From the NCBI GenBank assembly GCA_041674705.1, contig JBAYVF010000005.1, forward strand, positions 36,645-100,644: DNA of 64,000 nt, in the 5' to 3' direction. The position numbers and the translations under genes were made by a program. Origin of the DNA: Candidatus Omnitrophota bacterium (GTDB lineage Bacteria; Omnitrophota; Omnitrophia; Omnitrophales; Aquincolibacteriaceae). This document shows positions 11 to 57,252 of the stretch, piece by piece. The notes below the pieces were generated by a model, which saw only the letters and a list, made by a program, of their open reading frames with translations, did not search any database and was not told the origin of the DNA. How positions within the stretch are numbered: position 1 is the stretch's first letter; every line of letters begins with the position of its first letter.

Positions 11-3000
11 GTGATGGACCGTATGAAAGACTCGGTTCTGGAGCATTTCAAGGGACGCTCGGATTTTGCGTATGCGCCGGATTGGGAAGCCGATTATGAG
101 GCGGGAATGAAGCCGTATACTCTGATCAACATTGAAGGGGTTTCCCACCTCCTGACCCCGATGGGCGAGATCTTCTGGGGACAGTCCAACACATCGCCGA
201 AGGTCGCTTTTGGGGCGCAGAGCACCTCAGCCGAAAATACCCGGAAACTGGCCGGTATCGTGGCCGCTCTGATGATCCATGCGCGCGAAGAAGTGGCGCC
301 GCAGGCTCCCAAGTTACATCCTTTGGAAACCTCGGAATTGTTCAAGGCATGGCTGCCCGAGACGCACAAACTTTCTTATGCGGATTTTTCAAAAACAACG
401 GAAGGCGCATCTGGAAAAACGTACGAGGCGTGGCAGAGCAATGGTCTGGAAGCCAATGTTCTTGCGGCTTATCCAACCGCGGAAGCCGCGCTTTCCGAAT
501 TCACGGCTCGTGCTGAGATCCGGGATTTAGATAACGAAGCTTCGGAATTTTTTATCGATGATAAGAAGCCCGCTCATGAAGACAAACAGCCTGCCACGAT
601 CTACTATCACACTCCTAAGGAAATGACTTCATCTCCGAGTTATGGCGTCATTACATTTCTCTCGGGTATTGCCGTCCTGTTTGTTGTGGTCGGTCTGATC
701 GCCGGATTGGTTGCTGTGGCCAAAGGAATGAATAACCCGATTTACGGGGCGGGTGATCCGATGGCCCGTATGATCCTGTGGACCGCGGGCGGAGTTTTAA
801 TTGTAGCGGCCGTGATTGCCGCCTGGATGTGGCATGGATTTTCGAAGCAAAAAAATTATGAAATGATGGGCCCGACGACGCTTAAAGGTCCGATTACCCC
901 GGAAAACCAGCCCTATTCATTCACCGAGCAGCCTTCCAAGGCTCCGGAAAAGGTCGGCTCTCCGGAGCGTTCGGAGGCACGCAGTAGCCTCCGCACTGAG
1001 AGGAGCCGCGAAGCAGCTCCCGTACGTGCTGAAATGCGGAATTTCGAATCCATGATAGAAAAACATCTGTCTTCCGATTTCGGGATGAAAGTTTTTTGGG
1101 ACGTCGTTTGGGCTGAAATGAATCGAAATGAAGGGATGAACCCTCTGGATCCTTCGCGGACTTTCCAGCAGTGGGTTTTGGAGGCGGACCATGCGGACGA
1201 GCTTGTTGATGTGGTGGAGGCGACAGGAGAGATTTCCTTGCGTCTGAAAAAGGCGCTGGATTCGCAAAAGAACTTGGCGGCTCAAGAAGAAAGCCGCCGT
1301 TTTAAGAACAAGATCCTTTTTGGCGGGGCGGCCGCAGCGGTGATCCTTGCGAATGTTGTTTTCCTGAAGATCATTTCACCGGGATTAGCTCTTCACTTCC
1401 TTTCGCCTGCCGTATCGTTGCTTTTACTTGCGCTGTTGATGCCAGAAAATATTTACATACGGAAAAGTTTAAGCCTTGAAGATGCAGTTCGTCGCCCCAA
1501 ATTGATCGAACATTACAGCCCCTTGATCCTGACCGCTTTTGAACAGGCAAGGAAGGAAATGTTCCGCATTGTTCGGGAAGAGAGCGACGAGAGGGAGAGG
1601 CATTCGCCCGTCCTGGAAGCTTGGGTGAGACAGACTCGTCCCGACGAAGTCAAGCGGGCGGAGATGAGGGATATCGAGGCGGATCTTGCGCAGATTCCCG
1701 AGCCGCTTCGAACGAATGTGCGGGAGTTTCTGACCTTGGGAGAAGCGGATGCAGAAGGTTGGCAGGGTTCTAAGTCTTTGCTCATGCGATGTGCGAAGGG
1801 TTCGCTTTTCCGGTTTGATCTAGGCGTTCGTACTATCGCCAATGGTTCCGAGCGCTGGGTCAAGATCGATGTGACCGATATAACGCCCGGGACGGATCAG
1901 AAAGAAGTCGGCTTTTACAAGTTCCGTATGGGGCTCCCGGTGGGCGGCAAAATCGTGGCTATCGGGGAATATGACATGGATGCCGAGCGTCAACAAGAGC
2001 ACGAACCCACGATGCGGGTCGGGCCCGATTATGAAGGTCGCTATATAGGGAGCGCTCTTCTTGTGCTGGGGTTGTATTTGGCGAAGAAATACGGGAACGA
2101 GAGCTTTATCGCCCGTGACATAGTGGCGAAAGGATTTTTTGATGCCAATCACATGGGTTTTAGTCCTAACGGGAATGGTTGGGAGAGTATTTTCGATCTT
2201 GTGGAAATGCCGCTTCCGAAGCTGCCTTCGCTCAAGCCCCAGGACCCGATTCGTGTAAAGTTAAACCGCGAAATCGCTCATTGGAAGAATCGTTACGCAA
2301 GCATTGCCGGGTCGAAGAACCGGGAGTACGGTTTTAATATCAGCGTCCGGAGGTTCGAAAAGATCGATCTGACCATGGAAAAAGTTTACGGGGATCCTCT
2401 CCTTAACGAGGAAGAGCGAGTGATCGTCGCCAAGGCGATCGCGTTCGGCAAAGGCGGGATCTTCCACTTCTGGAAAGAACTCGACAAGGCTGCGAAAAGG
2501 CGCTTGCTCGATCAGCTGAACGCCATAGACCGGATTGATATCCGTCTGAACATCCAGACCTCTCGCACAGGCATTGAGAGTTTACAGGAGCTTTTTCAAA
2601 AATTCATTATCAACGGAGAAGCGGGAGCGGATTTAAAGCCGGCTCCTGAGCAGATCCAAGCCCCTGGGATGTTTGACCTCGCGGATGAAAACAGTCCTCA
2701 GGCCATGGAGGCGATTATGCTGGGAGATGCAGCTAGGTCGCGTGGAGAAGTTGCTGTACTGGAACTTGCCGGGGGAAGCGGGTCTCGTCTTGGTTTTGAC
2801 AAGCCTAAAATAGAATATCCTGCGAGCCCTATCCGGCATAAGTCTCTGGGGAGACTCCGAGCCGAAAAGATCGCTGCCTACGCTCAGGACGCGCTTCGGC
2901 TGGGTGCTTTTCTGACAAAAGTACCCCACAGCGGGCAAGAAGCCGAAGAGATGGCTGCCGGTTTGAAAAAAGCTTCCGCAAAAACGGGGATACCGATCCC

Positions 3001-6000
3001 TTGGATCATCATGACAAGTGATGTAACTCATGCCCAGACGCTTGCGTATTTTAATGATCGAATGAGGGACGGAAAGTATTTCGGGCTTATTCCAAAGGAT
3101 TGGGTTCGCTTCAAGGAGCAGCGCGTTCTACCCGTCTTTACGGATCGCGGTGAATGGGTCCTGGAAGCAAAAGACAAAATCTCCGTAAGTGGCTTCGGGC
3201 ACGGGGACGCGCGCGAGTGGATCATGATGGATCCCGAGACCCAGGAATGGCTCCGCGGTGTTTTCGGGATCAAGTATGTTGCTGTGGCGAACGTGGACAA
3301 TGCAATGTTGCCGGCCCTTGGTTCTCGAGCCATTGGTTATCACATTCTGGCCACCCGGGATAATGCGCTCGGGGCAGAACCCCTGAGCAAGGTTGTGGTG
3401 GACAAACGAGGCCCCGGGGAAAAGGTCGGTGTTTCGGTCCTTCTTGACGGGAACGACGCCGTGATCGAGTACAACCAATTTACGAGAGACATTCTGACTT
3501 TCAAATATGCTTATGTTTTTGAAAACCGGCGAATCGTTTTCTATAAAGCGGATGACGGGACCTACCAGATCTACGGCTTATCGGAATTTAACGATTTTGT
3601 TAAAGGCACGCAGTCGCTTGCGGCCATGGATTTCAAACAGTTTGAAACGTGGGTCTCCGAGCATCTTGCAAACCTGAATGAGGTCCCGCAGGATGCCAAA
3701 ATTTATTGGAGCGGGGAACCCTATCTGAAGGAAAGATTAAAAGGCCTGAAGTTGTGGCTCAACCTAGGAAGTATTAACGGGCTTATTTGGACTTTGGATT
3801 CTTTCATGAATAAGGAGCACCCTTTGGCGCCTCTTCCGGTGGTCGTTGCCAAGGGAAAAAATGTTGATGGATTCCATCCTGAGAATTTTAAGCCTTACAC
3901 AAAAGACCAAGAGGTCATTAAAGTCAATAAATTCGAGACCATGGCGTTCCACGGATTTTTGAGGGGGCCTTCCCATGGTGCGCACATTCTGGCCCGCCGC
4001 GAAGATGCTTTTTCTCCTATCAAAGAGCCAGAAAAAGAGGGGCCGGATAACCCCGTGGAAGCCGCGCGGATCTATAGTGAAAGACATATCCGCTGGCTAA
4101 GGGGGCGTGTCGACGCTGAAGTCATGCCAGGTGCTGTGGTGGAATTGGCGGATCCTTTCGCGGGAGTCGATGGTAGGGAGCTCTTTCAGAGGATTGGAAA
4201 AGGTTTGTTTCTTTCTGAAAAATCGCAATTCAGCGTTAGCGGTCCGAATACACGTATCGGGCAAAACTTCCGGGTGGAAAATTCGTCTGCTTTTATCTTG
4301 CGTCATGACATCGAATCCCGTTCTCAATCGGAGGTCCAAATTGGTCCTGATGTGACGGTTAAGGCACATGTGTATTTCCGCTTGAAAGGCAATGCGACGG
4401 TCCTGGTGGATCCTGGCGTTGTTTTTAACTATCCCGTGGCCTTTGTGCTGGACGACGGAGAATATCTTCATATCCGGCAGGAGCTTCTGGACGAGGTGTA
4501 CAGGCTTTTGAGCAGCGGAAATGAGGCCGACATATCTCAGGTTTTTGAGATGTATCGGAAAAGCAAGGAAGCTTCCAAAGGAAAAACAGAAGAATCGCGA
4601 ACAGACGGGCAAAAGAAATACGATTCCTTTTTGGTCTATAAGCTGGTGGAGTCTATTTCCAAGCGATTTCCGGATTTTAGCCCTGCCAAGAAAAACGCAC
4701 AGAGGGTCCTCGCGCAGATCGTTGATTGGCAGCTCAAGCTTAAGCCGGAACAAAAAGAGGCTTTGGCACGGGCCCAAGATGTTTACCTTGAAAAATACAA
4801 GGAGCCGATGAGTCCCGCCTACGCGGCCTATGTGACCGCGATGATTCTTAGGGCCGACCGTGAAAAGTTGAAGATCGCGGTTCGTGGTTCTGACGGGAGT
4901 GTGATCGGGGAACAATCCAACTTCGTTCTCGCATCTCAATTGACCGATGAAGAGAAGGAGAGGCTCTTAGGGGCTTTTGACTATAAAACCATTGTCGCAG
5001 ATTCTGAAAACGAGCCGGAGGCCGCCAAAGCTTTTGTGACGATTCATTCCCTGGATGGCGGGTTGGGGGAGAAACTGGTCCGCTATGTTTATAAGCAGAT
5101 TCTTGTCGACGAAAATCTTGTGCCGCGCGAAGAAGTGGAATTTGACGAAAACGGGAAGGTCAAGAACGGAGCAAAGGGGACGGATACCGGCTTTGTGATC
5201 CATCATGAAGGGCAGCGTGTGTTTGTAAGTGTCGCCGAAGTCAAGATCTTGCAGATGATCGAACGGGTGCGGACCGGCAAGATAGGCGGTGTTGGGTTTA
5301 CGCCGCTTGTGAACAAGGATTCCAAGCCTTCTTATGAAAAACTTCTGGATCGCATTTGTCTCGAAGATCGTTTCAAAAGCACCGGGGATAAAAGGACTTA
5401 TCGTCAGCTGCTTCAGGAACTTGGAGCGGAGGTCAATCCTCTTTATCTTCAACAGGACTTACCGGGGATCGATGTGGAGACCAATCGTCCTGCCACAAAT
5501 CCGGACGGTCTTTGGCAACCTGGCGGGCACGGACAGTTGGGTTTCAGTTTCCTTTATAAACCGGAAGATTGGAAGCCCCGCCATGATGGGAAGTTCGACG
5601 TCCTTGCTTTTGTGAACGGGGACAATGTTAACGCGAGTCAGCTGGATCCTTCCATGATCGGGATGATGGCCCGGAAAAAAATGCCGGTTGTCAAACTGAC
5701 AACCATGGCGATGCCGATCGATAAAAAAGGCGGGAAAGATGGGCTCTTGCTTGAAAACGGCAGTTTGAGAATCCCCCAGCAGATGGAGATCGCGGATGCT
5801 CAGGCATGGGGGAAGACCGAAGAAAATCTTTTTATTAAAGCTGGCCAGGAAGAAGGCTCCAAAATCTTCGGTGCAACCTCTGTCGGGAACCAGCCTTTCA
5901 ACACCAATACGATCTATGTGGTGAAGGATTTTCTGTTTCCACTGCTGGCGGAAGTCAAAAAACTTTTGGGGGACGAACGCTATTATGCGGAAGTGATCGC

Positions 6001-9000
6001 GCCGACACTGATAAGCAAAGATACAAAAAAAGCCAAGGATGGGCGTAATTACAGGCCTCTGGATGCGGCGATCGGAACGGTTATCCACAACATGAACGAA
6101 TTTTTCCTGAGACGCTTAGCGGTTCCCACGGGATGGCGTTCTATTGAAGACAAAAAAATCGCTGAGGTCATGAAAAAATACAGGTATGACCGGGTTCTTT
6201 ACTTTTTTAACGTACCCCGGAGATTTTTTACGCCTCAAAAGAACCCGTTGGATGCCTATCTGCAGGCCTACGGCAATTATTTCAGTTTGGACCAAAAGGT
6301 CTGGATTTTGAGGGAAACATCTGAAGGGCTTGTTCCTCCCGAGTTTTCTGTTACCGCGCGGCAGAAGGCGAAGCCTGATGATGAGCGTGGTTTTTCATTC
6401 GATTCTGGGAAAGGTTATTGGAGCGAACTTCAGAACGTGATCGATTCGTTCGGAAAAAATTCGGATTGGTCATTTTTGAAAAAACTCGATATCGACGGGG
6501 ATGTTTTGATTCGGGATGCCGTTTTGGCTGGAGATATTCATATTCAATCGGCCTTTGACGGCGTCTTCGCTCTTGACCAAGCTCCCGAAATGCAGCCGTT
6601 GCGAGGTGCCGATGGCCGTATTCGATTGAAAAACATCAAGGTGAGCATCTCGAAGCAGGGAGGGGTCTCTGTCACTCCGCGTTCGGAAATGCGGACGGGG
6701 AATGAGCTTGAGAGAGCCATTGCCCTCAGCCAGTTAGCGCTTTCGGAGCTTAAGCGGGATCTCAAAGAGGCCAAGAAGGCGGGGACTCTGGCCTTAATCC
6801 CGGGTCTGGAGCAAACGATCCGGCAAAAGGTGAATGACATTGTTCGGTATCAATGGACATTGTCGGAAAACACAGTTGTTCAAGAGATCGTTCCGGAAAT
6901 GATGAAGAAAATTTCTGAAAGAGAAATGGCTGTTCAAAAGAAGGATCTGAATAAGGCCGCACGCCTTGAGGTGGAACGGGCCTACTATGCGATAGCTCCC
7001 GTGGCTATTTCCATGGGGGTTGATCCGATCGGCATGTTGCGATTCTTATATGGGATGGTACCTCTTAGCGAAGATCCGAATAAGAAGTTTATGGATATTT
7101 ACGCGGCGTTTTTAACCGGGGACCAGGACAAGATCAAAGCTTCGAACCTTCAGATCATTGGCCGGCCCATCAAGGATCTGGAAACGGCCCGTGAAATCTT
7201 TGCGGAAAAATTCGCTCCCTGGATCGCTGTTTTGCTCGAATTGCCCAAAGAAAAGAGTGCCGGGGTCAAGGTTTTCGCCCTCAAAAATTTTCTAGGGAAC
7301 ATGACAGGTTTTTATTTCGGGAATCGTGAAAAGGCCCTTCTCCCGGAGGCGGGGCGTCTCTTGACTGCGTGGGACAACTGGGTGAATCCCTCCAGAGTTC
7401 TCCCTGTGGCTCCTAGCATGCTTCAAGTGGGCGGGCTTAAGGTCGTAGTGCCGAACGTCTCGAAAACTATTCCGCCGCAGCAGCGCCAATCGTCGGCGCG
7501 TGCCGAGGCGAGAGATACTGAAGTCGATTATTCTGCCATCGAAGAATCCGTACAGCAGTTGAGGTTCGAAGGTGCCGAAGCCCGTCGAAGGACCCTCCTT
7601 GAAAAGCTTGTGGCTTTGTCCCTTGGCGCGCTTTACAAACCAACCCAGGTAGAATTGACGCCGGGAGCATTGAGAGAACTTGGAAAGATCTTCGGGAAAC
7701 TGCCGTCTGAGTTAACGCAAGAATGGTGTTTTGGCTTGATGCTGATGGTGGTGAGCCAGGGCATTCCTGCGAAAGGGGAAATATACGAACGTCCGGAAGT
7801 GCTTATCACGTTCGTTTCCGAAAAGTATCGGCTTGGTGCCGGTAAGGAGATCGCAACGGATGAGGCTTTGGCGAAGTTTATCCAAGCCGAGCAGGAAAGG
7901 ATCTCCAAAGAAGCAGCGAAGATCCGGGTACTTGAAAAACGTAAAAATTCCAGCCGCTCCGAAATCCGGGGTGGCGACAACGGTTATACAATTGAGTCGT
8001 TGACGCCCAGAGAACAGCTGGTTCGGGGGCAGATCAAGCGGGAAATGATAGAAAGAACGGCGTCGCCCAAGATCTTATGGTCCCAGGGAGAATTGAAGAA
8101 TTTAAAGACGCTGGAAATAGAGGCCTTGAAGATCTGGACGCCCCGGTTGTATGTTTCTGGGAAGCCGGATGTCCAAAGAGCCAAAGCCACTCGCGATCGG
8201 TTGCGTGAAAATTATTACAGCTATGACGTGCAGGTTGCGGCGCATATGCTGAAAAAAATGGCCCTTGAACTAAGCTATGAGGAAATCAATGAGCAGCTCA
8301 CCCGGGAGCAGCTAAAAGAAGTGACGGAGGTTTTGAGCGCGGCCGTCCACAATGGTGAGTACCTCCAGGATCACCGGGTGAGTTCTTGGGGGCATTATGA
8401 TCAGCTGAAGCTTATCGCAAGTTCGCCCGCCTACCTTAAAGATATTTTGAGGAAGTTAAAGGCTCTTTATGAACATGAAGCTAGGCTCGCGGCCTCAAAA
8501 ACAAGCCGAGCCGAGGTTCGTGCCGTTCCTGCGATCTCGCAGGCCACTGTCATGAATTCGATGAACAGGGAAGAACGGCCATTCGATCTCCGCAGCGTTA
8601 CGCAGTTATCCTTTTTGAATTACCTCAAACTGCGTTTCGGGATTCTGCCGCAAGCCATGGCGGAAGCGCTTTCAAAGAGCTTCACGAATGTTCGCGGAAT
8701 AGTGAATCGGTTGATGACCCATGCGGGCATTGCGGCGCCGGCTGTGGCCTCCAAGACAGCTGAGAGTGCCAATGCGGTGAAGATGAAATCAGCTCGTGCG
8801 GTCTTTGGTGAAACGACGCTCAACAAGACCTCCGATGCGTTCATTATTGGCGCGACGTTTGCATTCGATCGTTGGGCGATCGCGGCGATGCGCGCGGTTT
8901 TTGGCGATGCTTCGATGGTCGTACTGGTCCGAAATGACGAGGATCGGGCGAAGCTTGCAAAGATGAATGCCGAACTCGCAAAGGCGGGGCGGCCTGAGAT

Positions 9001-9262
9001 CCTGCAAGCAGAGGATTCCAATGGGGTGAAGGCGTTCATGGCTCAGGAGAAAGTTCGTCAGCGCGGTATCGGCCGCAACCTGAGATTTAAGGCGATCGTG
9101 GACGTAAACGATCCGATGGCGATCGCGCTTAAGGAAATGATCCCGGATTTTGTCTGGGTCAACGATGGGAACTTCGGAAGTTTCATGTTCCAGGCCGGCG
9201 AAGCGATCCGGATGTTGGTTGCCGACTTCCAGAAGAATTTCGCCCTCGCCAAATCCGCGTAA
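11..9262 (+). CDS. Giant (3,083 aa) membrane-anchored multidomain protein: 4 predicted TM helices, GNAT-like fold, two UDPGP-family (eukaryote-type UDP-sugar pyrophosphorylase) domains, long helical C-terminal modules
   Basis: Single uninterrupted ORF. LELAGGSGSRLG..IMTS..GHGD..NVDN..EKVGV (aa ~915-1140) and SLDGGLGEKL..PGGHGQ..NGDNVNA..KKGGKDG..FNTNT (aa ~1680-1960) match UDPGP-family signatures. VGPDYEGRYIGSALL (aa ~670) resembles GNAT motif A. Hydrophobic pairs lie at aa ~211-277 and ~434-480. An RBS-like AGGGG (3-7) precedes ATG 14, but the frame is also open to position 2, so the N-terminus could lie upstream. Confidence 0.85.
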   Translation: MMDRMKDSVLEHFKGRSDFAYAPDWEADYEAGMKPYTLINIEGVSHLLTPMGEIFWGQSNTSPKVAFGAQSTSAENTRKLAGIVAALMIHAREEVAPQAPKLHPLETSELFKAWLPETHKLSYADFSKTTEGASGKTYEAWQSNGLEANVLAAYPTAEAALSEFTARAEIRDLDNEASEFFIDDKKPAHEDKQPATIYYHTPKEMTSSPSYGVITFLSGIAVLFVVVGLIAGLVAVAKGMNNPIYGAGDPMARMILWTAGGVLIVAAVIAAWMWHGFSKQKNYEMMGPTTLKGPITPENQPYSFTEQPSKAPEKVGSPERSEARSSLRTERSREAAPVRAEMRNFESMIEKHLSSDFGMKVFWDVVWAEMNRNEGMNPLDPSRTFQQWVLEADHADELVDVVEATGEISLRLKKALDSQKNLAAQEESRRFKNKILFGGAAAAVILANVVFLKIISPGLALHFLSPAVSLLLLALLMPENIYIRKSLSLEDAVRRPKLIEHYSPLILTAFEQARKEMFRIVREESDERERHSPVLEAWVRQTRPDEVKRAEMRDIEADLAQIPEPLRTNVREFLTLGEADAEGWQGSKSLLMRCAKGSLFRFDLGVRTIANGSERWVKIDVTDITPGTDQKEVGFYKFRMGLPVGGKIVAIGEYDMDAERQQEHEPTMRVGPDYEGRYIGSALLVLGLYLAKKYGNESFIARDIVAKGFFDANHMGFSPNGNGWESIFDLVEMPLPKLPSLKPQDPIRVKLNREIAHWKNRYASIAGSKNREYGFNISVRRFEKIDLTMEKVYGDPLLNEEERVIVAKAIAFGKGGIFHFWKELDKAAKRRLLDQLNAIDRIDIRLNIQTSRTGIESLQELFQKFIINGEAGADLKPAPEQIQAPGMFDLADENSPQAMEAIMLGDAARSRGEVAVLELAGGSGSRLGFDKPKIEYPASPIRHKSLGRLRAEKIAAYAQDALRLGAFLTKVPHSGQEAEEMAAGLKKASAKTGIPIPWIIMTSDVTHAQTLAYFNDRMRDGKYFGLIPKDWVRFKEQRVLPVFTDRGEWVLEAKDKISVSGFGHGDAREWIMMDPETQEWLRGVFGIKYVAVANVDNAMLPALGSRAIGYHILATRDNALGAEPLSKVVVDKRGPGEKVGVSVLLDGNDAVIEYNQFTRDILTFKYAYVFENRRIVFYKADDGTYQIYGLSEFNDFVKGTQSLAAMDFKQFETWVSEHLANLNEVPQDAKIYWSGEPYLKERLKGLKLWLNLGSINGLIWTLDSFMNKEHPLAPLPVVVAKGKNVDGFHPENFKPYTKDQEVIKVNKFETMAFHGFLRGPSHGAHILARREDAFSPIKEPEKEGPDNPVEAARIYSERHIRWLRGRVDAEVMPGAVVELADPFAGVDGRELFQRIGKGLFLSEKSQFSVSGPNTRIGQNFRVENSSAFILRHDIESRSQSEVQIGPDVTVKAHVYFRLKGNATVLVDPGVVFNYPVAFVLDDGEYLHIRQELLDEVYRLLSSGNEADISQVFEMYRKSKEASKGKTEESRTDGQKKYDSFLVYKLVESISKRFPDFSPAKKNAQRVLAQIVDWQLKLKPEQKEALARAQDVYLEKYKEPMSPAYAAYVTAMILRADREKLKIAVRGSDGSVIGEQSNFVLASQLTDEEKERLLGAFDYKTIVADSENEPEAAKAFVTIHSLDGGLGEKLVRYVYKQILVDENLVPREEVEFDENGKVKNGAKGTDTGFVIHHEGQRVFVSVAEVKILQMIERVRTGKIGGVGFTPLVNKDSKPSYEKLLDRICLEDRFKSTGDKRTYRQLLQELGAEVNPLYLQQDLPGIDVETNRPATNPDGLWQPGGHGQLGFSFLYKPEDWKPRHDGKFDVLAFVNGDNVNASQLDPSMIGMMARKKMPVVKLTTMAMPIDKKGGKDGLLLENGSLRIPQQMEIADAQAWGKTEENLFIKAGQEEGSKIFGATSVGNQPFNTNTIYVVKDFLFPLLAEVKKLLGDERYYAEVIAPTLISKDTKKAKDGRNYRPLDAAIGTVIHNMNEFFLRRLAVPTGWRSIEDKKIAEVMKKYRYDRVLYFFNVPRRFFTPQKNPLDAYLQAYGNYFSLDQKVWILRETSEGLVPPEFSVTARQKAKPDDERGFSFDSGKGYWSELQNVIDSFGKNSDWSFLKKLDIDGDVLIRDAVLAGDIHIQSAFDGVFALDQAPEMQPLRGADGRIRLKNIKVSISKQGGVSVTPRSEMRTGNELERAIALSQLALSELKRDLKEAKKAGTLALIPGLEQTIRQKVNDIVRYQWTLSENTVVQEIVPEMMKKISEREMAVQKKDLNKAARLEVERAYYAIAPVAISMGVDPIGMLRFLYGMVPLSEDPNKKFMDIYAAFLTGDQDKIKASNLQIIGRPIKDLETAREIFAEKFAPWIAVLLELPKEKSAGVKVFALKNFLGNMTGFYFGNREKALLPEAGRLLTAWDNWVNPSRVLPVAPSMLQVGGLKVVVPNVSKTIPPQQRQSSARAEARDTEVDYSAIEESVQQLRFEGAEARRRTLLEKLVALSLGALYKPTQVELTPGALRELGKIFGKLPSELTQEWCFGLMLMVVSQGIPAKGEIYERPEVLITFVSEKYRLGAGKEIATDEALAKFIQAEQERISKEAAKIRVLEKRKNSSRSEIRGGDNGYTIESLTPREQLVRGQIKREMIERTASPKILWSQGELKNLKTLEIEALKIWTPRLYVSGKPDVQRAKATRDRLRENYYSYDVQVAAHMLKKMALELSYEEINEQLTREQLKEVTEVLSAAVHNGEYLQDHRVSSWGHYDQLKLIASSPAYLKDILRKLKALYEHEARLAASKTSRAEVRAVPAISQATVMNSMNREERPFDLRSVTQLSFLNYLKLRFGILPQAMAEALSKSFTNVRGIVNRLMTHAGIAAPAVASKTAESANAVKMKSARAVFGETTLNKTSDAFIIGATFAFDRWAIAAMRAVFGDASMVVLVRNDEDRAKLAKMNAELAKAGRPEILQAEDSNGVKAFMAQEKVRQRGIGRNLRFKAIVDVNDPMAIALKEMIPDFVWVNDGNFGSFMFQAGEAIRMLVADFQKNFALAKSA

Positions 9263-9267: not shown

Positions 9268-9366
9268 GACATAGTACTTTGTACTTGGTACATAGTACTT
9301 GGCATATAGCAAAAAACTTCCCCCATTTTGTTTTGCTCCAAGTACCATGTGCTATGTACTATGTGC
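9268..9366. repeat. Heptamer-array hairpin, ACATAGT/ACTTGGT word family, copy 1
   Basis: Left arm 9268-9310 reads acatagt actttgt acttggt acatagt acttggc atatagc. Right arm 9335-9366 is the imperfect complement. Loop ~24 nt. Starts 6 nt after the giant-ORF stop. Confidence 0.75.
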
Positions 9367-12511: not shown

Positions 12512-12933
12512 GTTCGGAGTCTGGAGCTGGGAGTTCGGAGATTGAAACATGGAAGATAAATTTTCATTCGAGAATCTGTTGGTCTATAGGAAAGCGTTGG
12601 ATTATGTGGATTGCGTCTATGAATGGACCCAGGTATTCCCAAAAGAAGAAAAGTTTGGACTGACAAGCCAATTTCAGAGGGCAGCGCAGTCCATAGCGTT
12701 AAATATCGGGGAGGGAAGCGGCGGCACCAAGGCCGAATTCCAGCATTTCGTAAAGATAGCCAGACGATCTGTAAGGGAATGTATTGTTTGTACAACGCTT
12801 GCAAGAAGAAGGAATTATCTATCTGAAAAGGATGAGGCGAAATCGCGAGAAAGAGCTTCGGAATTATCAAAAATGCTGAGTGGGCTGTTTAAGGCTATTT
12901 GATGCTCCGAACTCCAAACTCATGACTCAAAAC
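12512..12933 (+). repeat. GTTCGGA-word hairpin cassette enclosing the four-helix-bundle ORF
   Basis: The 29-nt arms 12512-12540 (gttcgga gtctgga gctggga gttcgga g) and 12905-12933 are complementary at 23/29 positions (hand count). They abut the ORF at 12549-12902. Confidence 0.8.
12549..12902 (+). CDS. Four-helix-bundle protein (23S rRNA intervening-sequence protein / Avd-like family)
   Basis: 117 aa. LVYRKALDY..LTSQFQRAAQSIALNIGEG..F..IARRSVRE pattern typical of the PF05635/TIGR02436 family. GGAG RBS lies in the flanking repeat arm. Confidence 0.8.
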   Translation: MEDKFSFENLLVYRKALDYVDCVYEWTQVFPKEEKFGLTSQFQRAAQSIALNIGEGSGGTKAEFQHFVKIARRSVRECIVCTTLARRRNYLSEKDEAKSRERASELSKMLSGLFKAI

Positions 12934-12938
12934 TAAAA

Positions 12939-14351
12939 ATGAGACAGTTTTTTTTAAAGTTCCAGATTTTGTTCGAGGCGGCGATCCTTTTGGCAACGCT
13001 GACGCTGGTTTATGTGGTGATCCAGCCCTTTCATGAGCGGTGGGACATGACCCGTGAAAAGATCTATTCGCTTCCTCGGGCGACCACCGGAGTTTTGCGC
13101 GATTTGAAAGATCATAGAGTCGATCTTCTTCTTTTCTTTCCACAGGATGATCCCACGCGAAAAGGGCTGGAAGTTTTTCTGAAAGAGTGTAGCCGGCATC
13201 ACCCGGATTTTCATTTCGATTTCTATGACCCGAACCGGAGGCCGCAACTTGCGCGTAAGTTCAATGTCTCGGTCGCCAAGACGGTGATCTTCCGCTCCGG
13301 TGATCGGGAAGAACGTCTGATAGGTCCGACCGAAGAAGGCTTTACGAATGCGTTCCTGCGGCTACTCCATCCCAAGGATCTGGATGTCTGCTTCGTGTCG
13401 GGTCATGGAGAGGTGGAGCTCGATGATGAAACGACCGGCGGGTACCTGCGTTTCAGAGACACACTTTTAGGATATAACGCCAAGGTCCACGGGATCGTGC
13501 TCGCGCGTGACCATGTGCCGGATGCCTGCCAGGTAGTGGTTGTGGGCGGTCCGCGTTGGGATTTGACGGCCGAAGAGTTTGCGGATCTGGACAAGGCCTT
13601 CCAAAAAGGGAAGGGTGTGCTGCTTTTGGTCGATCCGATGGACCCGGGTGCGGGAGGTGCATTCACGGAATTTGCGAAAAAATATGGTGTGGCGCTTGGG
13701 CAGAACGTGATCGTGGATAAGGTCAGCCGTATGGTGGGCGGAGATTTTTTGATGCCGCTCGTGAGTCAGTATCTCGTGACGAATTCCATCACGAAGACCA
13801 TGAAACAAGCGACTTTTTTTCCGTTGGTGCGTACGGTGCAACCGTCCGCGGATGTTATCCCGGGGCTTGAGGTGACGCCTCTGGCCATGACCAGCGAGGG
13901 GAGTTGGGGAGAAACGGATCTTTCAGCCCTTGAGAATGGGAATGCGGCGTTTGATATGAAAACAGATATCGCGGGGCCTTTGCCGGTGGCCGTGGCGATC
14001 GAGAAAACCAGCGATAAGCTGTCAGCGTTAAGCGGTAAGGAAAAAACCTCTAACGCTTATAACTTAGCGCTTTTCGCTGGAGGCCGGATGATCGTTGTGG
14101 GGGACGGGGATTTTTTGACGAATGGCTATCTGGATCTTTCCGGGAATAAGGAGCTGGGACTGAATATGATCCGCTGGCTCGCCCGCGATGATCGTTTTAT
14201 GGACGTGAAGCGTCCGGAGCTTCGTTTTAAGCCGCTCCTGCTTGACGTGCCGCATCGGACCCAGCTGATCATCCTTTTGCTCGGAGTCTATCCCTTGGCG
14301 CTCCTTGTGCTTGGTGGGACCTATCTTGTGATCCGTTCCAGGACGTCATGA
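12939..14351 (+). CDS. GldG-like ABC-transporter auxiliary protein
   Basis: N- and C-terminal TM anchors. Sequence and operon position resemble the GldG / ABC-type uncharacterized transport system family. Confidence 0.75.
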   Translation: MRQFFLKFQILFEAAILLATLTLVYVVIQPFHERWDMTREKIYSLPRATTGVLRDLKDHRVDLLLFFPQDDPTRKGLEVFLKECSRHHPDFHFDFYDPNRRPQLARKFNVSVAKTVIFRSGDREERLIGPTEEGFTNAFLRLLHPKDLDVCFVSGHGEVELDDETTGGYLRFRDTLLGYNAKVHGIVLARDHVPDACQVVVVGGPRWDLTAEEFADLDKAFQKGKGVLLLVDPMDPGAGGAFTEFAKKYGVALGQNVIVDKVSRMVGGDFLMPLVSQYLVTNSITKTMKQATFFPLVRTVQPSADVIPGLEVTPLAMTSEGSWGETDLSALENGNAAFDMKTDIAGPLPVAVAIEKTSDKLSALSGKEKTSNAYNLALFAGGRMIVVGDGDFLTNGYLDLSGNKELGLNMIRWLARDDRFMDVKRPELRFKPLLLDVPHRTQLIILLLGVYPLALLVLGGTYLVIRSRTS

Positions 14352-14428
14352 TTCTCCTCATTGAAAAAAATAAACGGGTAATCATGACAGCCCAAGTCAC
14401 CATCCAAGAAAAGAAAATAAAGACTTGG
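14347..14428 (+). repeat. Conserved ~80-nt intergenic element with short ORF start, copy 1
   Basis: Shares catgattctc and an identical 38-mer (14366-14403 = 52703-52740) with copy 2. Contains ATG 14384 opening MTAQVTIQE... Confidence 0.8.
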
Positions 14429-15489
14429 ACGTCATGAAGCTCGTCCGGACATTCGTTTTTATCCTTCTTTTTGCCGCCGTTGCGACGATCTATTTTTTTC
14501 AGGTGCGTCTCGCCAAACAAACTCTCGCGATCATTCCCGACGAAGTGAATCGAACGGTCGCCATCTCAAAAAACGATCCAATCGATCGCGTGGAATTGTG
14601 CGACAACGTCCAAAAGACAAAGATCAAGCTTCGAAAAGTAAATGGGGCCTGGGAGATCGAGCGGCCCGTTCACTACCCGGCGGAGAACCAGGTCGCGGAG
14701 GGATTTGTGGTCGCGGCCCGGATGGCATCCCAACAGCCGCGTTTGCGGGCTGAGAAAGAATGGGGAGAGTATGGGCTCGAAAAGCCTGAGCTCGAGATCC
14801 TGTTTGGACTTCCCGGGAAAAGAGCGGTAACCCTTCTGATCGGAGCCCAAGCGCCCGTCGGAAAGGCGATTTTTGCCCGGTGGGCGGAGGAGCGTGGATT
14901 TTTTCTCCTGCCTCCCGAAATGAAAGCGATGTTTCGTCAGACGGTTTACGGGTTACGTCAAAAGCGGTTGTTCCGTACTCCGGCCGACAGGATCCAGAAG
15001 ATCTCGGTGGAAATGGGGGAATACAGTTGTCAGTGGAAAAAGGACGGCGGGACATGGTATTGGCTTGAACCTGTTCAAAAATTAGGCCAGAAAGTCCCGG
15101 CCGGGCGCATCGATCTTGTCGTGGGAGGCCTGGAGAGCCTTCATGTAAGAGAATTTCTGGACAGCAATAAGAAGTCCAAAGCCGAGCTCGGATTTTTCAT
15201 GATCCATGACCTTATTCAGGTCGAAGCTGAAGATGGCCCGCCTGGAAAACGGGACGAGGCTCGCCCGTCTTCGCAGGGCGGCAAGAAGGAAACGTTTTAT
15301 TTCGGGAATGAGGTCCCGGAGAAGAATGCCTATTACGGATTTCGCGAAGGCGAGGATGTGGTTTTTCTTGTGGATCGCGTCAATGTGGTAGAGCTTTTTG
15401 ATTTTATACGCAAGATCCAGGCCGAAGATCTAAAACCCGAGACCAAGGATCTGAGCCCGAAGACCGGGACCGTGGAACCCAAGGTATGA
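14425..15489 (+). CDS. DUF4340-like membrane-anchored protein
   Basis: N-terminal TM helix. Follows the gldG-like gene, as DUF4340 proteins commonly do. Start is TTG 14425 or ATG 14434. Confidence 0.6.
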   Translation: MDVMKLVRTFVFILLFAAVATIYFFQVRLAKQTLAIIPDEVNRTVAISKNDPIDRVELCDNVQKTKIKLRKVNGAWEIERPVHYPAENQVAEGFVVAARMASQQPRLRAEKEWGEYGLEKPELEILFGLPGKRAVTLLIGAQAPVGKAIFARWAEERGFFLLPPEMKAMFRQTVYGLRQKRLFRTPADRIQKISVEMGEYSCQWKKDGGTWYWLEPVQKLGQKVPAGRIDLVVGGLESLHVREFLDSNKKSKAELGFFMIHDLIQVEAEDGPPGKRDEARPSSQGGKKETFYFGNEVPEKNAYYGFREGEDVVFLVDRVNVVELFDFIRKIQAEDLKPETKDLSPKTGTVEPKV

Positions 15490-16178: not shown

Positions 16179-16987
16179 AGACACTAGGCAATAAGAAGAT
16201 CGGCGTGATCGGCGTGGGGAACATGGGCGCTTCGATCCTGGAAGGTGTGCTCGCTAAGAGTCTTACAACCCCTTCCCGTGTATGGGTTTATGACAAGGCT
16301 TTGGCGAAGGCCAAGTCCTTTGCTCGCCGGAACCGCGTGAATCAGGCATCTTCGATCGTAGAATTGTTAAAGAAAACGGACGTGGTGCTTTTGGCCATGA
16401 AGCCGCAGGATTTTGTGACCTTCGCGCTAGAACATCGGTTGTCCTTTAGGCCCGGGCAAAACGTTATTTCGATCCTGGCCGGAATGACGACGGAAAAGAT
16501 CACAAAGGCTCTTGGCAAAAATGTCACGGTGGTTCGAGCCATGCCGAATCTGGGAGCGAAGGTGGGGCAATCGATGACCGTGATCTGCGGAAAAAACAGA
16601 ACAGCGCTTTCTTGGGCTGAAACGCTTTTTGCCGGCTGCGGGGAAGTGGTGACGCTCCCGGAAAAGAGATTGGACCTTGTGACCGCGATGAGCGGCAGCG
16701 GACCGGCCTATTTTTTTCATCTGATGGAACTTTTGACGGATTTTGGCGTGAAACAGGGGCTTCCTGCCAAGGTTGCCCAAGCGCTAGCCGTTCAGACGGG
16801 ATTAGGGGCCGCGCTTCTGGCAAAAGGCTCTGAGGAATCCTGTGGAGAGCTGCGGCAGCGGGTAACCTCCAAAAAAGGAACGACGGAGGCCGCTCTGAAA
16901 ACTTTACAGCGTGGAAAATTCGGGAAGATCTTTCAGCGAGCGCTTGGGGCCGCGGTGAAGAGGAGTCGGGAATTACGGAAAGGATGA
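16175..16987 (+). CDS. proC: Pyrroline-5-carboxylate reductase
   Basis: IGVIGVGNMG dinucleotide fold and a P5CR C-terminal region. Classic yggS-proC-yggT neighbourhood. Confidence 0.9.
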   Translation: MKTLGNKKIGVIGVGNMGASILEGVLAKSLTTPSRVWVYDKALAKAKSFARRNRVNQASSIVELLKKTDVVLLAMKPQDFVTFALEHRLSFRPGQNVISILAGMTTEKITKALGKNVTVVRAMPNLGAKVGQSMTVICGKNRTALSWAETLFAGCGEVVTLPEKRLDLVTAMSGSGPAYFFHLMELLTDFGVKQGLPAKVAQALAVQTGLGAALLAKGSEESCGELRQRVTSKKGTTEAALKTLQRGKFGKIFQRALGAAVKRSRELRKG

Positions 16988-16996
16988 GTTTTGGAT

Positions 16997-17056
16997 GTCA
17001 TCCCCGAATGTTTTAGTCGGGGATCCAGCCTGGATTCCCGCTTCCGCGGGAATGAC
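16997..17056 (+). repeat. Structured 60-nt repeat (twin-hairpin element), copy 1
   Basis: gtcat-CCCCGA-loop-TCGGGG-atcca..tggat-TCCCGC-loop-GCGGGA-atgac, 10 nt after the proC stop. Confidence 0.8.
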
Positions 17057-17602: not shown

Positions 17603-18457
17603 ATGTCTAACGGGATGAAACGTACCCAGAAACCTTCGAACGAACTTCTTGAGAAGATCGATGCCTGCGTCGCGGCGATCCGTAAAGAAACGGATTTTAT
17701 TCCCGAGATCGCGCTGGTCCTTGGCACGGGGCTCGGGAATCTCGCGGGGCGCGTGAAGGCGGAAAAGGTTCTGACGTATGACAAGCTGCCGCATTTTTCG
17801 AAGTCGACCGTGGAATCCCATAAAGGGCAGCTCGTGCTCGGGGAACTTTCCGGAAAAAAGATCGCGGTGATGGAAGGACGATTCCATTTTTATGAAGGGT
17901 ACTCGCTTGAGGAGGTGACGTTCGGGGTGCGCGTGCTCCGCGAGCTGGGGGCAAAGATCCTGATCGTTTCAAACGCGGCCGGCGGATTGAATTTGAGCTA
18001 CAAAAAAGGAGAGATCGTGATCATCACCGACCAGATAAATTTTATGGGGGTGAATCCGCTGATCGGCCCTAATCTTAATAAGCTGGGGCCCCGCTTTCCG
18101 GATATGTATGAGCCTTATTCCAAGCGTTTGAACGACCTGACACTTGCCGCGGCGAAAGAAGTCAAAGTCCCGGTGAATCAGGGGGTTTATGTCGGAGTGA
18201 CGGGGCCGTGCCTTGAAACCCGCGCGGAGTACCGGATGATGCGTAATTTCGGCGCAGATCTTGTGGGGATGTCCACGGTGCCGGAGGTGATCGTGGGGGT
18301 GCACATGGGGATGGAGATCCTGGGCTTGAGCATTGTGACAGACACTTGTGATCCGGACCATCTCGAGCCATGCAATATCCAGGAGATCATCAAGACGGCG
18401 AACGAAGCCGGGCCGAAGTTAGACAAACTTATTACAGCCGCGATTTCCAAGTTCTAA
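17603..18457 (+). CDS. punA: Purine nucleoside phosphorylase (PunA/PNP-I type)
   Basis: STVESHKGQLVLG..GRFHFYEGY..SNAAGG..GMSTVPE closely parallel PunA-family sequences. Confidence 0.88.
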   Translation: MSNGMKRTQKPSNELLEKIDACVAAIRKETDFIPEIALVLGTGLGNLAGRVKAEKVLTYDKLPHFSKSTVESHKGQLVLGELSGKKIAVMEGRFHFYEGYSLEEVTFGVRVLRELGAKILIVSNAAGGLNLSYKKGEIVIITDQINFMGVNPLIGPNLNKLGPRFPDMYEPYSKRLNDLTLAAAKEVKVPVNQGVYVGVTGPCLETRAEYRMMRNFGADLVGMSTVPEVIVGVHMGMEILGLSIVTDTCDPDHLEPCNIQEIIKTANEAGPKLDKLITAAISKF

Positions 18458-18524
18458 GTGCCATGTACTATGTACCAAGTACGGAGGCATAACGAGTACT
18501 TAGCATATAGTACATAGTACTTAG
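18458..18524. repeat. Heptamer-array hairpin, ACATAGT/ACTTGGT word family, copy 2 (opposite orientation)
   Basis: Arms 18458-18482 and 18496-18524, ~17/20 complementary by hand. The 18-mer gtacttggtacatagtac at 9281-9298 recurs as its reverse complement at 18465-18482. Confidence 0.8.
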
Positions 18525-33927: not shown

Positions 33928-34386
33928 ATGATGACTCCAGAAGAAAAAATCACGCAATTAGGCCTGTTTTTGCCGCCCGCGCCCAAGCCTGTGGGGCTTT
34001 ATCAGCCCTTCGTGGTGGCGGGGAAGCTGGCCTTTTTAAGCGGCCAGCTTTCGAAGGACGCCCAAGGCAAGCTTTTGACGGGGAAGGTCGGCAAAGACCT
34101 TTCTCTGGCCGAGGGACAGGCGGCGGCGCGTCTTGCGGCGCTGAACGTCCTGAGCATTATGAAGCACCTGATCGGTTTTAAAAAGATCCGGCGCGTGGTG
34201 AAAATGACCGGTTTTGTTCAGGCCGCGCCTGATTTTTATGAAATTCCGGCGGTCGTGAACGGGGCCTCGGAACTTTTTGCCGAAGTAATGGGAGAACAAG
34301 GAGCGCACGCGCGTTCTGCCGTAGGGATGGCGAGCCTTCCCATGAATGCCGCAGTCGAGATCGAACTCGTCTTGGAATTAAAATGA
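33928..34386 (+). CDS. RidA/YjgF-family protein
   Basis: 152 aa with an overall YjgF/RidA-like sequence (..SGQLS.., ..ARSAVGMASLP..VEIE). Confidence 0.8.
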   Translation: MMTPEEKITQLGLFLPPAPKPVGLYQPFVVAGKLAFLSGQLSKDAQGKLLTGKVGKDLSLAEGQAAARLAALNVLSIMKHLIGFKKIRRVVKMTGFVQAAPDFYEIPAVVNGASELFAEVMGEQGAHARSAVGMASLPMNAAVEIELVLELK

Positions 34387-34398
34387 CGTGATTTTTGC

Positions 34399-34460
34399 GT
34401 CATCCCCGAACGTTTTAATCGGGGATCCATGGATTCCCGCTAAAAACATGCGGGAATGAC
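34399..34460 (+). repeat. Structured 62-nt repeat (twin-hairpin element), copy 2
   Basis: Same stems as 16997-17056. All differences fall in loops. Lies 13 nt after the ridA-like stop. Confidence 0.8.
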
Positions 34461-37122: not shown

Positions 37123-37187
37123 GGCGGAAGGTGTACGGCGAAGCTAGGAAGTTTGCGCCGTACGCCTTACTCCGTACGTCGTTTTTT
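37123..37187. terminator. GTACGGCG-word hairpin followed by T-run between convergent folE and lpxD
   Basis: Arms 37123-37140 and 37155-37179 (~13/15 pairing in the core), then gttttttg. Sits between the stop codons of convergent genes. Confidence 0.7.
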
Positions 37188-43753: not shown

Positions 43754-43809
43754 GAGTACGGCGCAAGGCGTACGGCGTTTTATTTCGCCGTACTCCGTAC
43801 GCCGTACAC
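43754..43809. repeat. GTACGGCG-word hairpin, copy 2 (guaB3-guaA spacer)
   Basis: Arms 43754-43777 / 43786-43809 are complementary at 20/24 positions. 8-nt loop ttttattt. Confidence 0.8.
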
Positions 43810-45364: not shown

Positions 45365-45371
45365 CACCAGT

Positions 45372-45457
45372 GCGGCGTACGGAGTATCGCGTACGGCGTA
45401 AAAGCACAAAATGATTTTAAAGTTCAACGCGAGACGCCGTACTCCGTACGCCGTACG
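45372..45457. repeat. GTACGGCG-word hairpin, copy 3 (guaA-dnaE spacer)
   Basis: Arms 45372-45398 / 45435-45457 are ~19/23 complementary. 36-nt loop. The 22-mer cgccgtactccgtacgccgtac is identical at 43786-43807 and 45435-45456. Confidence 0.8.
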
Positions 45458-52048: not shown

Positions 52049-52648
52049 ATGGAATGGTTCTGGAAGATGTACGATCATCTCCAAAAAAGCGTTGCGGGCT
52101 CGGCCCTTCAAAACTTTGCACCGACCGACTGGATTTTTTTATGCCTGATCTTTTGGGGCCTGGTGCAGGGAAGCCGTAAGGGTTTTAGCGACATGTTCGG
52201 GAAGTTGTTGGGGATATTCCTTGTGAGCATGCTGACCCTGAGTTTTTACTTAAAGGCGGGCGCCTTTCTCAACGCAAATCTTCCCGTTTTTCCCTTGAAA
52301 GTCGCTGAATCGATTTCTTTTTTTCTGCTGACCCTCTTTCTCTGGCTTTCCGTCTCATGGAGTCTCAATATCGTCGGCAAATTTCTCAGGGTGGAGGCGC
52401 AAGGGATCCTGAAGACCTTGGGCGGAATGATCTTCGGTGTTTTGCGCATGATGCTTTTACTCAGCTTTCTCGCGCAGATGCTTTTGTTCCTTCCGATCGA
52501 ACCCCTGCAGCAGATCTTCAAACAGGGACGTACCTTCACAGGTTATGCGATCGCGCAATTCGTGCCTCATCTTCACACGCTGGTTGTAAGCCCCTTCCGT
52601 AAGCCGGCCCTTAAAAAAGCCGTAGCCTCATACAAGGTCGGCGGGTAG
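52049..52648 (+). CDS. cvpA: CvpA-family membrane protein
   Basis: ..DWIFLCLIFWGLVQGSRKGFSDMFGKLLG.. matches the CvpA N-terminal pattern. 4 TM. Confidence 0.7.
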   Translation: MEWFWKMYDHLQKSVAGSALQNFAPTDWIFLCLIFWGLVQGSRKGFSDMFGKLLGIFLVSMLTLSFYLKAGAFLNANLPVFPLKVAESISFFLLTLFLWLSVSWSLNIVGKFLRVEAQGILKTLGGMIFGVLRMMLLLSFLAQMLLFLPIEPLQQIFKQGRTFTGYAIAQFVPHLHTLVVSPFRKPALKKAVASYKVGG

Positions 52649-52687
52649 CATCGTGTCGATTTTATTTTTGCGGGTGCACAGTACAGC

Positions 52688-52765
52688 CATGATTCTCAAA
52701 TTAAAAATAAACGGGTAATCATGACAGCCCAAGTCACCATTCAGGAAATAAAAATAGAGACTCGG
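52688..52765 (+). repeat. Conserved ~80-nt intergenic element with short ORF start, copy 2
   Basis: See copy 1. ATG 52721 opens a 28-codon ORF ending at TAG 52805-52807, 14 nt before the dnaG ATG. Confidence 0.8.
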
Positions 52766-52821
52766 GCAGTACTGCGAACCATAAAATCAATATTAACGCA
52801 GTACTAGGAAACAGACGCGTT

Positions 52822-54629: not shown

Positions 54630-54658
54630 TTGGTTTCAAGAGGCGAGATAACTATAAT
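54630..54658 (+). promoter_or_regulatory. Candidate promoter upstream of rpoD (TTGGTT-N17-TATAAT)
   Basis: TTGGTT 54630-54635, TATAAT 54653-54658. Confidence 0.45.
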
Positions 54659-54830
54659 ACCCAGCTCTATCCTTGTCTAAGATTTGATTTTAAAATGGTT
54701 GACAAGGATTGCCCTAATTTCCGTCCAAGTCTTTTTTCTTTAGATGGCGACTTGGACGGCCCCAATCACAGCGTTGCTGTGATTGATCGGGATTGGGACC
54801 GCTTCGCAAAAATTAAAAGGTTTTAGGACT

Positions 54831-57014: not shown

Positions 57015-57084
57015 TTTTCTTTCCCGCCTTATTGTTGATTGCAATTCCTCTTTATCTTCGATATCCTACTTTCGCTTTGCTCTA

Positions 57085-57154: not shown

Positions 57155-57252
57155 TTCTAGCTTAATACAAGGGCCTATCCAATTCTCTGTAAGAGATTAA
57201 AAGGTTAATTGGATTGGTCCTGTCGACCATTAAAGAAATAAATAAAAGACAA

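Follow-up and report, generated by a model that had tools for sequence, protein, structure and literature searches.

The DNA analysed in this work is a stretch of 64,000 nucleotides (nt) from a Candidatus Omnitrophota bacterium (assembly GCA_041674705.1, contig JBAYVF010000005.1, positions 36,645 to 100,644 of the forward strand), referred to here as the window, and our subject is a short element found in the spacers between its genes. Copy 1 of the element lies between a gene matching the Pfam family ABC_transp_aux (12939-14351) and a DUF4340 gene (14434-15489), and copy 2 between a Colicin_V/CvpA-like gene (52049-52648) and the gene of DnaG (52822-54624), the latter two also named after their Pfam matches. 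The original prediction, made from the letters of the window, had recognised these two look-alikes at 14347-14428 and 52688-52765, where we also find them, and had read them as a translated leader peptide or upstream open reading frame (ORF), the alternative being a small mobile element inserting ahead of genes. Our results make it probable that both are members of a family of small, non-autonomous repeats with hairpins, of which some Omnitrophota lineages have many copies and their close relatives none.

The two copies share an identical 38-mer (14366-14403 = 52703-52740), and a repeat search of the window aligned them without gaps over 63 nt at 90% identity. With up to three mismatches, a 35-mer core matches only these two places in the window and none in 100 dinucleotide-preserving shuffles, so the shared 38-mer is far beyond chance. 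Each copy contains an internal ATG (at 14384 and 52721, respectively) that opens a mini-ORF beginning with MTAQVTIQE, and the sole two differences in that stretch are synonymous. The mini-ORF of copy 1 (17 codons) stops in the TGA of the ATGA at 14434-14437, overlapping the ATG of the DUF4340 gene, while that of copy 2 (28 codons) ends at 52807, 14 nt ahead of the dnaG ATG at 52822. All of this agrees with the original prediction, which had overlooked two further features of copy 1: an 11-nt direct repeat, GGACGTCATGA, that brackets it (14341-14351 and 14427-14437; spacing 86), and a 29-codon ORF (14348-14437) that starts at an ATG overlapping the upstream TGA and holds the mini-ORF in frame. 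Concerted evolution was considered as the source of the identical 38-mer and is not supported, because copy 1 is overall 92% identical to the copy at the orthologous site of the related locus L014 but 81% to copy 2. In the 38-mer we see no more than that core of the repeat family which is conserved best.

The basic unit of the family is about 80 nt long, with a range of 69 to 90 nt, and consists of two hairpins, H1 and H2. H1 is formed by CATGATT-CTC, an AT-rich loop of 15-19 nt and GGG-T-AATCATG, or by a covarying equivalent. In H2, a 9-bp stem, GyCCnnnnC/GnnnnGGrC (typically GyCCAAGTC/GACTTGGrC), encloses an A-rich loop of about 24 nt that is conserved, with the consensus rCCATTnAnGAAAAGAAAATAAA, and the bases past this stem vary (GCGTC, GCAGT, ACATG, GCGG). 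An optional third hairpin, H3, has the form CCCCAATTTCAAC..GTTGAAATTGATAnGTATTGGG. H2 and H3 are found in either orientation, and the modules assemble into mosaics such as H1(+)-H2(-)-H3-H2(+) in loci L012 and L019 or the minus-strand H2-H2-H3 of the window. One subfamily has CCAATT in its H1 stem; in L009 (7548-7730) a tandem pair of it includes one unit with an extra GC-rich hairpin (CCTGCCTGCCGGACAGGCAGG) inside H1, a nesting of yet another palindrome.

The element had been described as present in two copies. A covariance model of H2 instead gives five strong modules at four sites of the window: 14386-14433 (+), 52723-52770 (+), 54720-54761 (-), 54666-54713 (-) and 57212-57259 (+). Further copies were sought in two scans: a 22-mer of the core, scanned against one genome per species, found five loci, all in Omnitrophota or uncultured metagenome-assembled genomes (MAGs), and a scan of metagenomes that left the ORF region unconstrained added 19 more, two of which (L013, L023) were excluded as chance pattern matches in GC-rich coding DNA. 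Both scans led to contigs of Omnitrophota or uncultured origin alone. With the covariance model we counted 55 H2 modules in 26 related Omnitrophota loci (about 274 kb) and none in seven loci of close relatives (118 kb; L027-L029 and L032-L035). Viral contigs scanned with the core sequence gave no match, and a phage origin was rejected. At the gathering threshold, Rfam recognises in the window just an RNase P RNA and a tRNA, and searches of both copies at E values up to 5 returned nothing except a chance-level 5S-like match (E=0.39). A literature search for Omnitrophota and palindromic repeats retrieved no description of this family. On this search the family is previously undescribed, and what is new in it is that its long loop is conserved although the stems covary, that it prefers the translation signals CATG/ATGA and that it forms the relay ORFs discussed below.

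Evidence that units come and go was obtained at the junction of copy 1, where DUF4340 orthologues were fetched with their flanking DNA. In L027 (...CCAGGACGTCATGAAGCTGG...) and L028 the ABC_transp_aux and DUF4340 genes meet in a plain 4-nt ATGA overlap without any element, and in L029 they are separated by TAA plus 14 nt, again without it. The window, L008 and L014 have one H1+H2 unit at this place, L030 a shorter unit and L031 an H1 with an inverted H2; in L026, a composite of 171 nt precedes 3.3 tandem units with a period of 83, and L025 has a complex array broken by Ns. From genome to genome, the number of units at this junction is 0, 1 or more than 4. Since L027 and L028 carry the empty overlap, copy 1 is, on this comparison, an 86-nt insertion into the ATGA overlap with GGACGTCATGA on each side. 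The left direct repeat (14341-14351), single in the two empty sites, holds the ABC_transp_aux stop codon (14349-14351) and the ATG of the 29-codon ORF (14348). The inserted segment (14352-14437), as delimited against L027, comprises one H1+H2 unit and the second copy of the repeat, which itself includes the DUF4340 start codon (14434). Folding and covariation place H1 at 14347-14386, as CATGATT(CTC), an AT-rich loop and (GGG)T-AATCATG, with the internal ATG in its 3' arm. H2 occupies 14386-14433, pairing 14390-14398 with 14422-14430 around a 23-nt A-rich loop, and matches the covariance model (R1) with 61.3 bits (E=7e-13). All these features of copy 1 are on the plus strand.

Similar results were obtained at the other three sites of the window. 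In four relatives (L032-L035, DnaG 79-92% identical) the spacer between cvpA and dnaG measures 8-14 nt, against 173 nt in the window, and the alignment defines copy 2 as a composite insertion of 159 nt (52649-52807, plus strand) between the TAG of the cvpA-like gene (52646-52648) and the 14-nt dnaG leader. Its components are a left part, one unit of H1+H2 and a hairpin with GTAC. A fold gives H1 at 52688-52723; H2, at 52723-52770, pairs 52727-52735 with 52759-52767 and matches the same covariance model with 58.9 bits; and the right part of the composite is a third predicted hairpin, AGTACTGCG-20 nt-CGCAGTACT (52768-52805). The same layout lies beside other genes in L011 and L018, which are paralogous, not orthologous, occurrences. 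The original prediction had left room for a small mobile element landing before genes, and the empty sites at the loci of both copies bear that alternative out.

The third site lies in front of rpoD. There, an insertion of about 162 nt on the minus strand (54671-54832), flanked by CTAT, stands after a promoter-like TTGGTT-17-TATAAT and before the rpoD ATG at 54831. It holds two H2 modules (54666-54713 and 54720-54761; 41.5 and 40 bits) and one H3 (54761-54800), all on the minus strand, and the site is empty in L033-L035. In those relatives (positions 7803-7850) the rpoD ATG follows 12 nt past the TTGGTT-17 nt-TATAAT site, which suggests that their rpoD mRNA may be nearly leaderless; in the window (54631-54670 and 54831) the 162-nt repeat block parts the promoter-like site from the ATG. 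A mechanical ORF call starts rpoD at a TTG (54783) that falls inside the repeat, and homology puts the true start at the ATG 54831. At the fourth site, an H1+H2 unit of the CCAATT subfamily (57167-57260, plus strand; H1 57177-57214, H2 57212-57259; 38.7 bits in the covariance model) is bracketed by a 12-nt direct repeat, ACAAGGGCCTAT (57167-57178 and 57249-57260), and the 5' end of a tRNA (57253-57326) falls within the second copy of that repeat; L032, L033 and L035 have an empty site here. The 3' arm of this H2 is partly made of the first bases of the tRNA (GGGCC...), of which the 5' 8 nt recur as a duplicate 82 nt upstream. Formation of the hairpin could be in competition with the acceptor stem or with processing by RNase P, whose RNA gene is nearby (57942-58426). 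Empty orthologous sites therefore exist for all four loci of the window.

Units also differ in number. L004 has at least 3.5 perfectly identical 82-nt units ahead of an RnfC-like gene, in an array whose start is in L001; in L003, which comes from a related MAG, 1.5 units occupy this position before the gene. Within tandem arrays the units are 98-100% identical and run head-to-tail with a period of 82-83. Such near-identity, together with direct repeats that coincide with unit boundaries, could be taken to mean that the family is nothing else than debris of local slippage or unequal crossing-over, with no spread between distant sites. Local duplication is rejected because it cannot place units at dispersed loci: the same unit is present at unrelated places of one genome (the four sites of the window are up to 43 kb apart) and beside many unrelated genes across genomes. 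As a full account of the family we find it hardly credible.

The leader peptide proposed by the original prediction has in its favour that the first nine codons are common to both copies of the window with synonymous differences only, and that the stop of the ORF overlaps or is near a downstream start in the window, L003b, L005, L008 and L014. Two synonymous differences in 27 nt have no statistical weight, and comparison of 29 distinct copies does not reveal a conserved product. The ORF that starts at the internal ATG has 9, 11, 12, 15, 16, 17, 20, 25, 28, 32, 40, 45, 78, 155, 385 or 468 codons, and only MT(A/V) is constant. The original prediction had named frameshifts or stops in further copies as evidence against its peptide, and both were found: there are early stops in L011, L017 and L018, and 1-nt indels in the loop shift the frame in L009, L003a and L011. 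The codons that had appeared conserved are the 3' arm of H1 (AATCATG) followed by the 5' arm of H2, and changes in them are compensated on the opposite arm of the stem; the conservation of the mini-ORF is therefore explained by base pairing, not by coding. Moreover, the element is absent before the DUF4340 gene and dnaG in close relatives, adjoins many unrelated genes elsewhere, and its modules are found inverted and inside genes, where all three frames are read. A conserved peptide regulating the downstream gene is thus very improbable. Of the original interpretation, the mobile-element alternative has held and the leader peptide has fallen; the idea of translation survives in a changed form, as a longer relay ORF in which openness and not a peptide is kept.

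That the hairpins matter was examined by covariation. In a test with 25 diverse H2 modules and 500 shuffles, standard pairs filled 90% of the cells of the stem, seven of the nine pairs changed on both sides, and 49 cells were double changes, a level of covariation reached by none of the 500 shuffles; shifting the partner by one column lowered the pairing to 44-47%. Examples of compensated H2 stems are CCCTTGTC/GACAAGG, CCCCAACC/GGTTGGGG, CCAAACT/AGTTTGG and CCTGGC/GCCAGG. The H1 stem behaves likewise across subfamilies (CATGATT/AATCATG, CCAATT/AATTGG, CCCATT/AATGGG, CATGATC/GATTATG), being 97% paired with 10 double changes, and again 0 of 500 shuffles reach the observed value. The folding of single sequences around the copies, a check that had been suggested, gave z-scores of -2.4 to -6.4. 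On this pattern of substitutions, we consider that the hairpins are under selection for pairing. The strand on which the selection acts is another matter: on the gene-sense strand we found no wobble bias, G.U pairs (G.T in the DNA) numbering 6 and A.C mismatches 11. Because this bias is missing and the modules occur in both orientations, there is no evidence for a hairpin selected as RNA of one strand, and a role at the DNA level, or recognition on both strands, fits better.

These data also bear on the possibility that the repeat is a cis-acting module of the host, a structured RNA or DNA binding site that was recruited repeatedly at gene boundaries and whose mobility is secondary. It might be a stabiliser or processing site of mRNA, be bound by a nucleoid protein or an RNA-binding one, or tune intercistronic expression. 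A long loop that is conserved while the stems covary is typical of a hairpin recognised by a protein, and operon junctions and 5' leaders (dnaG, rpoD, tRNA) are places where such signals act. A host function of this kind is nevertheless difficult to reconcile with close relatives that are without the element at every site tested, with modules in both orientations relative to transcription and even in coding sequence, with the missing G.U excess, which does not indicate one-strand selection at the RNA level, and with the lack of any match to an Rfam family. We therefore regard it as unlikely, and retain the reading of a dispersed repeat family.

How can such repeats be accommodated between genes that overlap? 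All nine units that we found between overlapping genes have a length that is a multiple of three and no stop from the upstream ATGA to the downstream ATGA. Seven of them belong to the ABC_transp_aux/DUF4340 gene pair (the window, L008, L014, L030, L031 and two unit types of L026), one lies between two heptosyltransferase-like genes in L005 and one in a third gene pair in L015. In copy 1, the open frame is the 29-codon ORF already mentioned (MILLIEKNKRVIMTAQVTIQEKKIKTWTS; 14348-14437, plus strand), whose TGA overlaps the DUF4340 ATG and whose 3' part is the 17-codon ORF of the original prediction (14384-14437). The +1 frame of eight junction units has 4-7 stops (the frame of L015 was read separately), shuffled junction-unit sequences are open just 2-18% of the time, and among units that are not in an ATGA-to-ATGA position 3 of 13 are open. 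As the junction units differ in length (23, 29, 30 and 57 codons), frame and openness have been kept through several indel events. The junction units are probably translated as relay ORFs, from the upstream stop to the downstream start, and selection in them would act on openness and not on the peptide. At ATGA overlaps, a unit that is an open frame would let ribosomes relay through it, preserving the translational coupling of the two genes.

Other copies have been accommodated within genes. Four modules lie in frame inside long ORFs, those of RnfC-like, HI0933-like, UvrD-like and DUF3108 proteins. The RnfC-like protein has H3+H2 between its SLBB and 4Fe-4S domains, and the HI0933-like flavoprotein has H3+H2 inside, with its Pfam match cut in two. 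The inserts in the UvrD/AddA-like helicase and in the DUF3108 protein, whose Pfam match is also cut in two, are both H1+H2 of 28 codons, with direct repeats GACATGC and AAGCCC, respectively. Translated in these genes, the loop of H2 gives EKKIK, GKENK or KKRNKRK; all three frames are used, and hence there is no conserved peptide. The element may also lend start codons. In L003 and L004 its ATG is the only in-frame start upstream of the RnfC_N-matching region of the RnfC-like ORF. On the bottom strand, its left end reads GGAGAATCATG, a Shine-Dalgarno sequence plus ATG, and this ATG is taken as the start of the helicase in L009 (Pfam domain from residue 3), of an enoyl-CoA hydratase in L012 (domain from residue 10) and probably of a 592-aa ORF in L019. 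Divergent genes starting at the element's CAT were also considered in L007, L010 and L016 and discarded, the ATG-frame ORFs there having just 21-88 codons. The surviving copies thus spare genes: some fall exactly on ATGA overlaps or on start codons, one directly precedes a tRNA, and others lie within genes but keep the frame.

Regarding mobility, units have been gained, lost or amplified at fixed boundaries, with short direct repeats left. The break always follows the 3' arm of H2 and precedes the 5' arm of H1, and the direct repeats comprise TAG (3 nt), CTAT (4), GACATGC (7), CGTCATGA (8), GGACGTCATGA (11) and ACAAGGGCCTAT (12). They are often like the element's own end, as in the target GGACGTCATGA compared with the end GGGCGTCATGA, or the target ACAAGGGCC compared with the H2 arm GACAAGGGC. 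Since a unit ends in the sequence after which it is inserted, an old unit could serve as the neighbour of a new insertion, which would give head-to-tail arrays. Two mechanisms of mobilisation are the most likely candidates, and this pattern fits either. An enzyme acting in trans on the hairpins, of the HUH/tyrosine-transposase type, could move the unit by single-strand transposition, or Campbell-type recombination or template switching could take place on short homology at the H2/H1 boundary. We propose, tentatively and as a minority view of our own data, that the repeat is a selfish element adapted to translation signals, which targets CATG(A) starts and ATGA overlaps, carries expression signals in two directions and is moved by a putative hairpin-recognising enzyme. 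The leftward signal would be GGAGAATCATG, and the rightward one the internal ATG together with a relay frame that has no stop before its final ATGA. Neighbouring genes would in that case stay expressed after an insertion and even after tandem amplification, and such a 'translationally transparent' mobile element could donate start codons and new peptide segments to proteins.

Several observations weigh against the main reading, that of a mobile repeat family. The direct repeats vary from 3 to 12 nt and often coincide with the element end, which does not fit a classical target-site duplication with its fixed length. Apart from the palindromic TCATGA, a 6-nt sequence found at both ends of one subfamily, terminal inverted repeats are lacking, and the CCAATT subfamily has none. 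Neither a transposase nor a recombinase was recognised in the roughly 0.4 Mb of fragments: with approximate queries for IS200 TnpA, IS608 TnpA and an E. coli RAYT, tblastn against 381 kb gave a best E value of 0.35, and the gene lists of 11 annotated loci, all of them genome fragments, are without a transposase Pfam family. So strong a conservation of the 24-nt loop suggests that it has a specific binding partner, which could be a host factor. As to the relay ORFs, several of the junction units share one orthologous junction and so are not all independent, three gene pairs being represented, and their translation is predicted from sequence.

Among known systems, the closest in behaviour are the Rickettsia palindromic elements (RPEs). 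Both are dispersed short palindromic repeats, both are also intergenic, and both insert in frame into unrelated housekeeping genes, adding a peptide segment without destroying the protein. We know of no RPE described as inserted exactly at an ATGA overlap with a relay ORF. Comparing the families by their descriptions, the Omnitrophota repeats differ in belonging to another phylum, in the size of the unit (about 80 nt versus about 100-150 in RPEs) and in their two or three hairpins with a conserved 24-nt loop. In addition, each RPE family encodes one conserved peptide, whereas the Omnitrophota H2 loop is read in three frames. A total of 44 RPE insertions has been recorded in genes of R. conorii (review PMC10969869).

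The REP/BIME/REPIN repeats are also close in behaviour, being mostly extragenic hairpin repeats that form two-orientation mosaics and clusters, with some copies in genes. They are vertically persistent yet variable between strains (PMC3733652, PMC3116915), as are the Omnitrophota repeats. Classical REPs have 20-40 bp, with stems of 8-9 bp, loops of 4-5 nt and a GTAG or CGTC tag (PMC3733652). In contrast, the Omnitrophota H2 combines its 9-bp stem with a conserved loop of about 24 nt and has no constant tag, which rules out membership of the GTAG/CGTC REP family. REPINs, moreover, are mobilised by RAYT, and none was found in the Omnitrophota fragments with the approximate queries.

Bacterial MITEs (miniature transposable elements with inverted repeats), such as Chunjie of Geobacter, Correia of Neisseria and ERIC, resemble the Omnitrophota repeats in being small, AT-rich and non-autonomous, in their flanking direct repeats and presence/absence polymorphism, and in that they sit in operons without destroying them and can supply expression signals. 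For Chunjie, Chen et al. 2008, a reference given by PMC10969869, state in their title that it is found in operons without their destruction. The Omnitrophota repeats differ in having no terminal inverted repeats beyond TCATGA, direct repeats of variable length and head-to-tail arrays. The lack of terminal inverted repeats and of a fixed duplication led us to reject a classical MITE. Elements of the IS200/IS605 group transpose as single strands by 'peel and paste', and their palindrome-associated derivatives have subterminal hairpins at both ends, as our units do; the Omnitrophota element lies directly 3' of a short ..TCATGA that recurs at its own right end, which would likewise allow re-insertion and tandem arrays. 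The differences are that no TnpA was detected in the fragments searched, that the boundary repeats reach 12 nt as opposed to targets of 4-5 nt, and that modules occur in both orientations.

If these conclusions are right, selfish palindromic DNA of the RPE kind, tolerated in and between genes, would exist in a distant and uncultivated phylum, with the additional twist that open relay ORFs are maintained in the units that bridge overlapping genes. Mobile DNA would then find safe harbours, even in compact genomes, at start codons and stop/start overlaps. The conserved 24-nt loop and the covarying stems point to a specific binding or mobilising protein that is worth finding. There are practical consequences too. 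The repeats mislead gene callers, generating false mini-genes, wrong starts (as for rpoD in the window) and N-terminal extensions, and they inflate the predictions of small ORFs and leader peptides in Omnitrophota MAGs. Contigs of independent assemblies end within the 82-nt array (the end of L001, the start of L004, the start of L020 and the end of L021), so the repeats also break Omnitrophota assemblies.

The window contains other repeats and one exceptional gene. GTAC-rich intergenic repeats, AGTACTTnGTACTTGGTACATAGTACTT and CGCCGTACTCCGTACGCCGTAC, occur as direct and inverted pairs at 9273-9309, 18454-18522, 37156-37177, 43756-43807 and 45370-45456; they may be another repeat or terminator family, and GTAC hairpins of a similar kind flank the composite of copy 2. 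A 49-nt repeat, 80% identical between 16979-17027 and 34381-34429, contains the hairpin CCCCGAAnGTTTTAnTCGGGG right after gene ends; it could act as a terminator or represent another family of palindromic repeats. The simple repeats GGAGTTCGGAG / CTCCGAACTCC are present in inverted orientation at 12900-12935 and 57083-57118, and a similar motif precedes the orthologous tRNA in L033 and L035. Finally, a giant ORF upstream of tyrS (11-9262, more than 3083 aa within the window) has orthologues of 4906-10496 aa in L025-L030 (positions 1 to about 5500), with Pfam matches to enzymes, glycolytic ones among them (PGI, hexokinase, PGM, Glu/Leu/Phe/Val dehydrogenase, epimerase), and to HEAT repeats.

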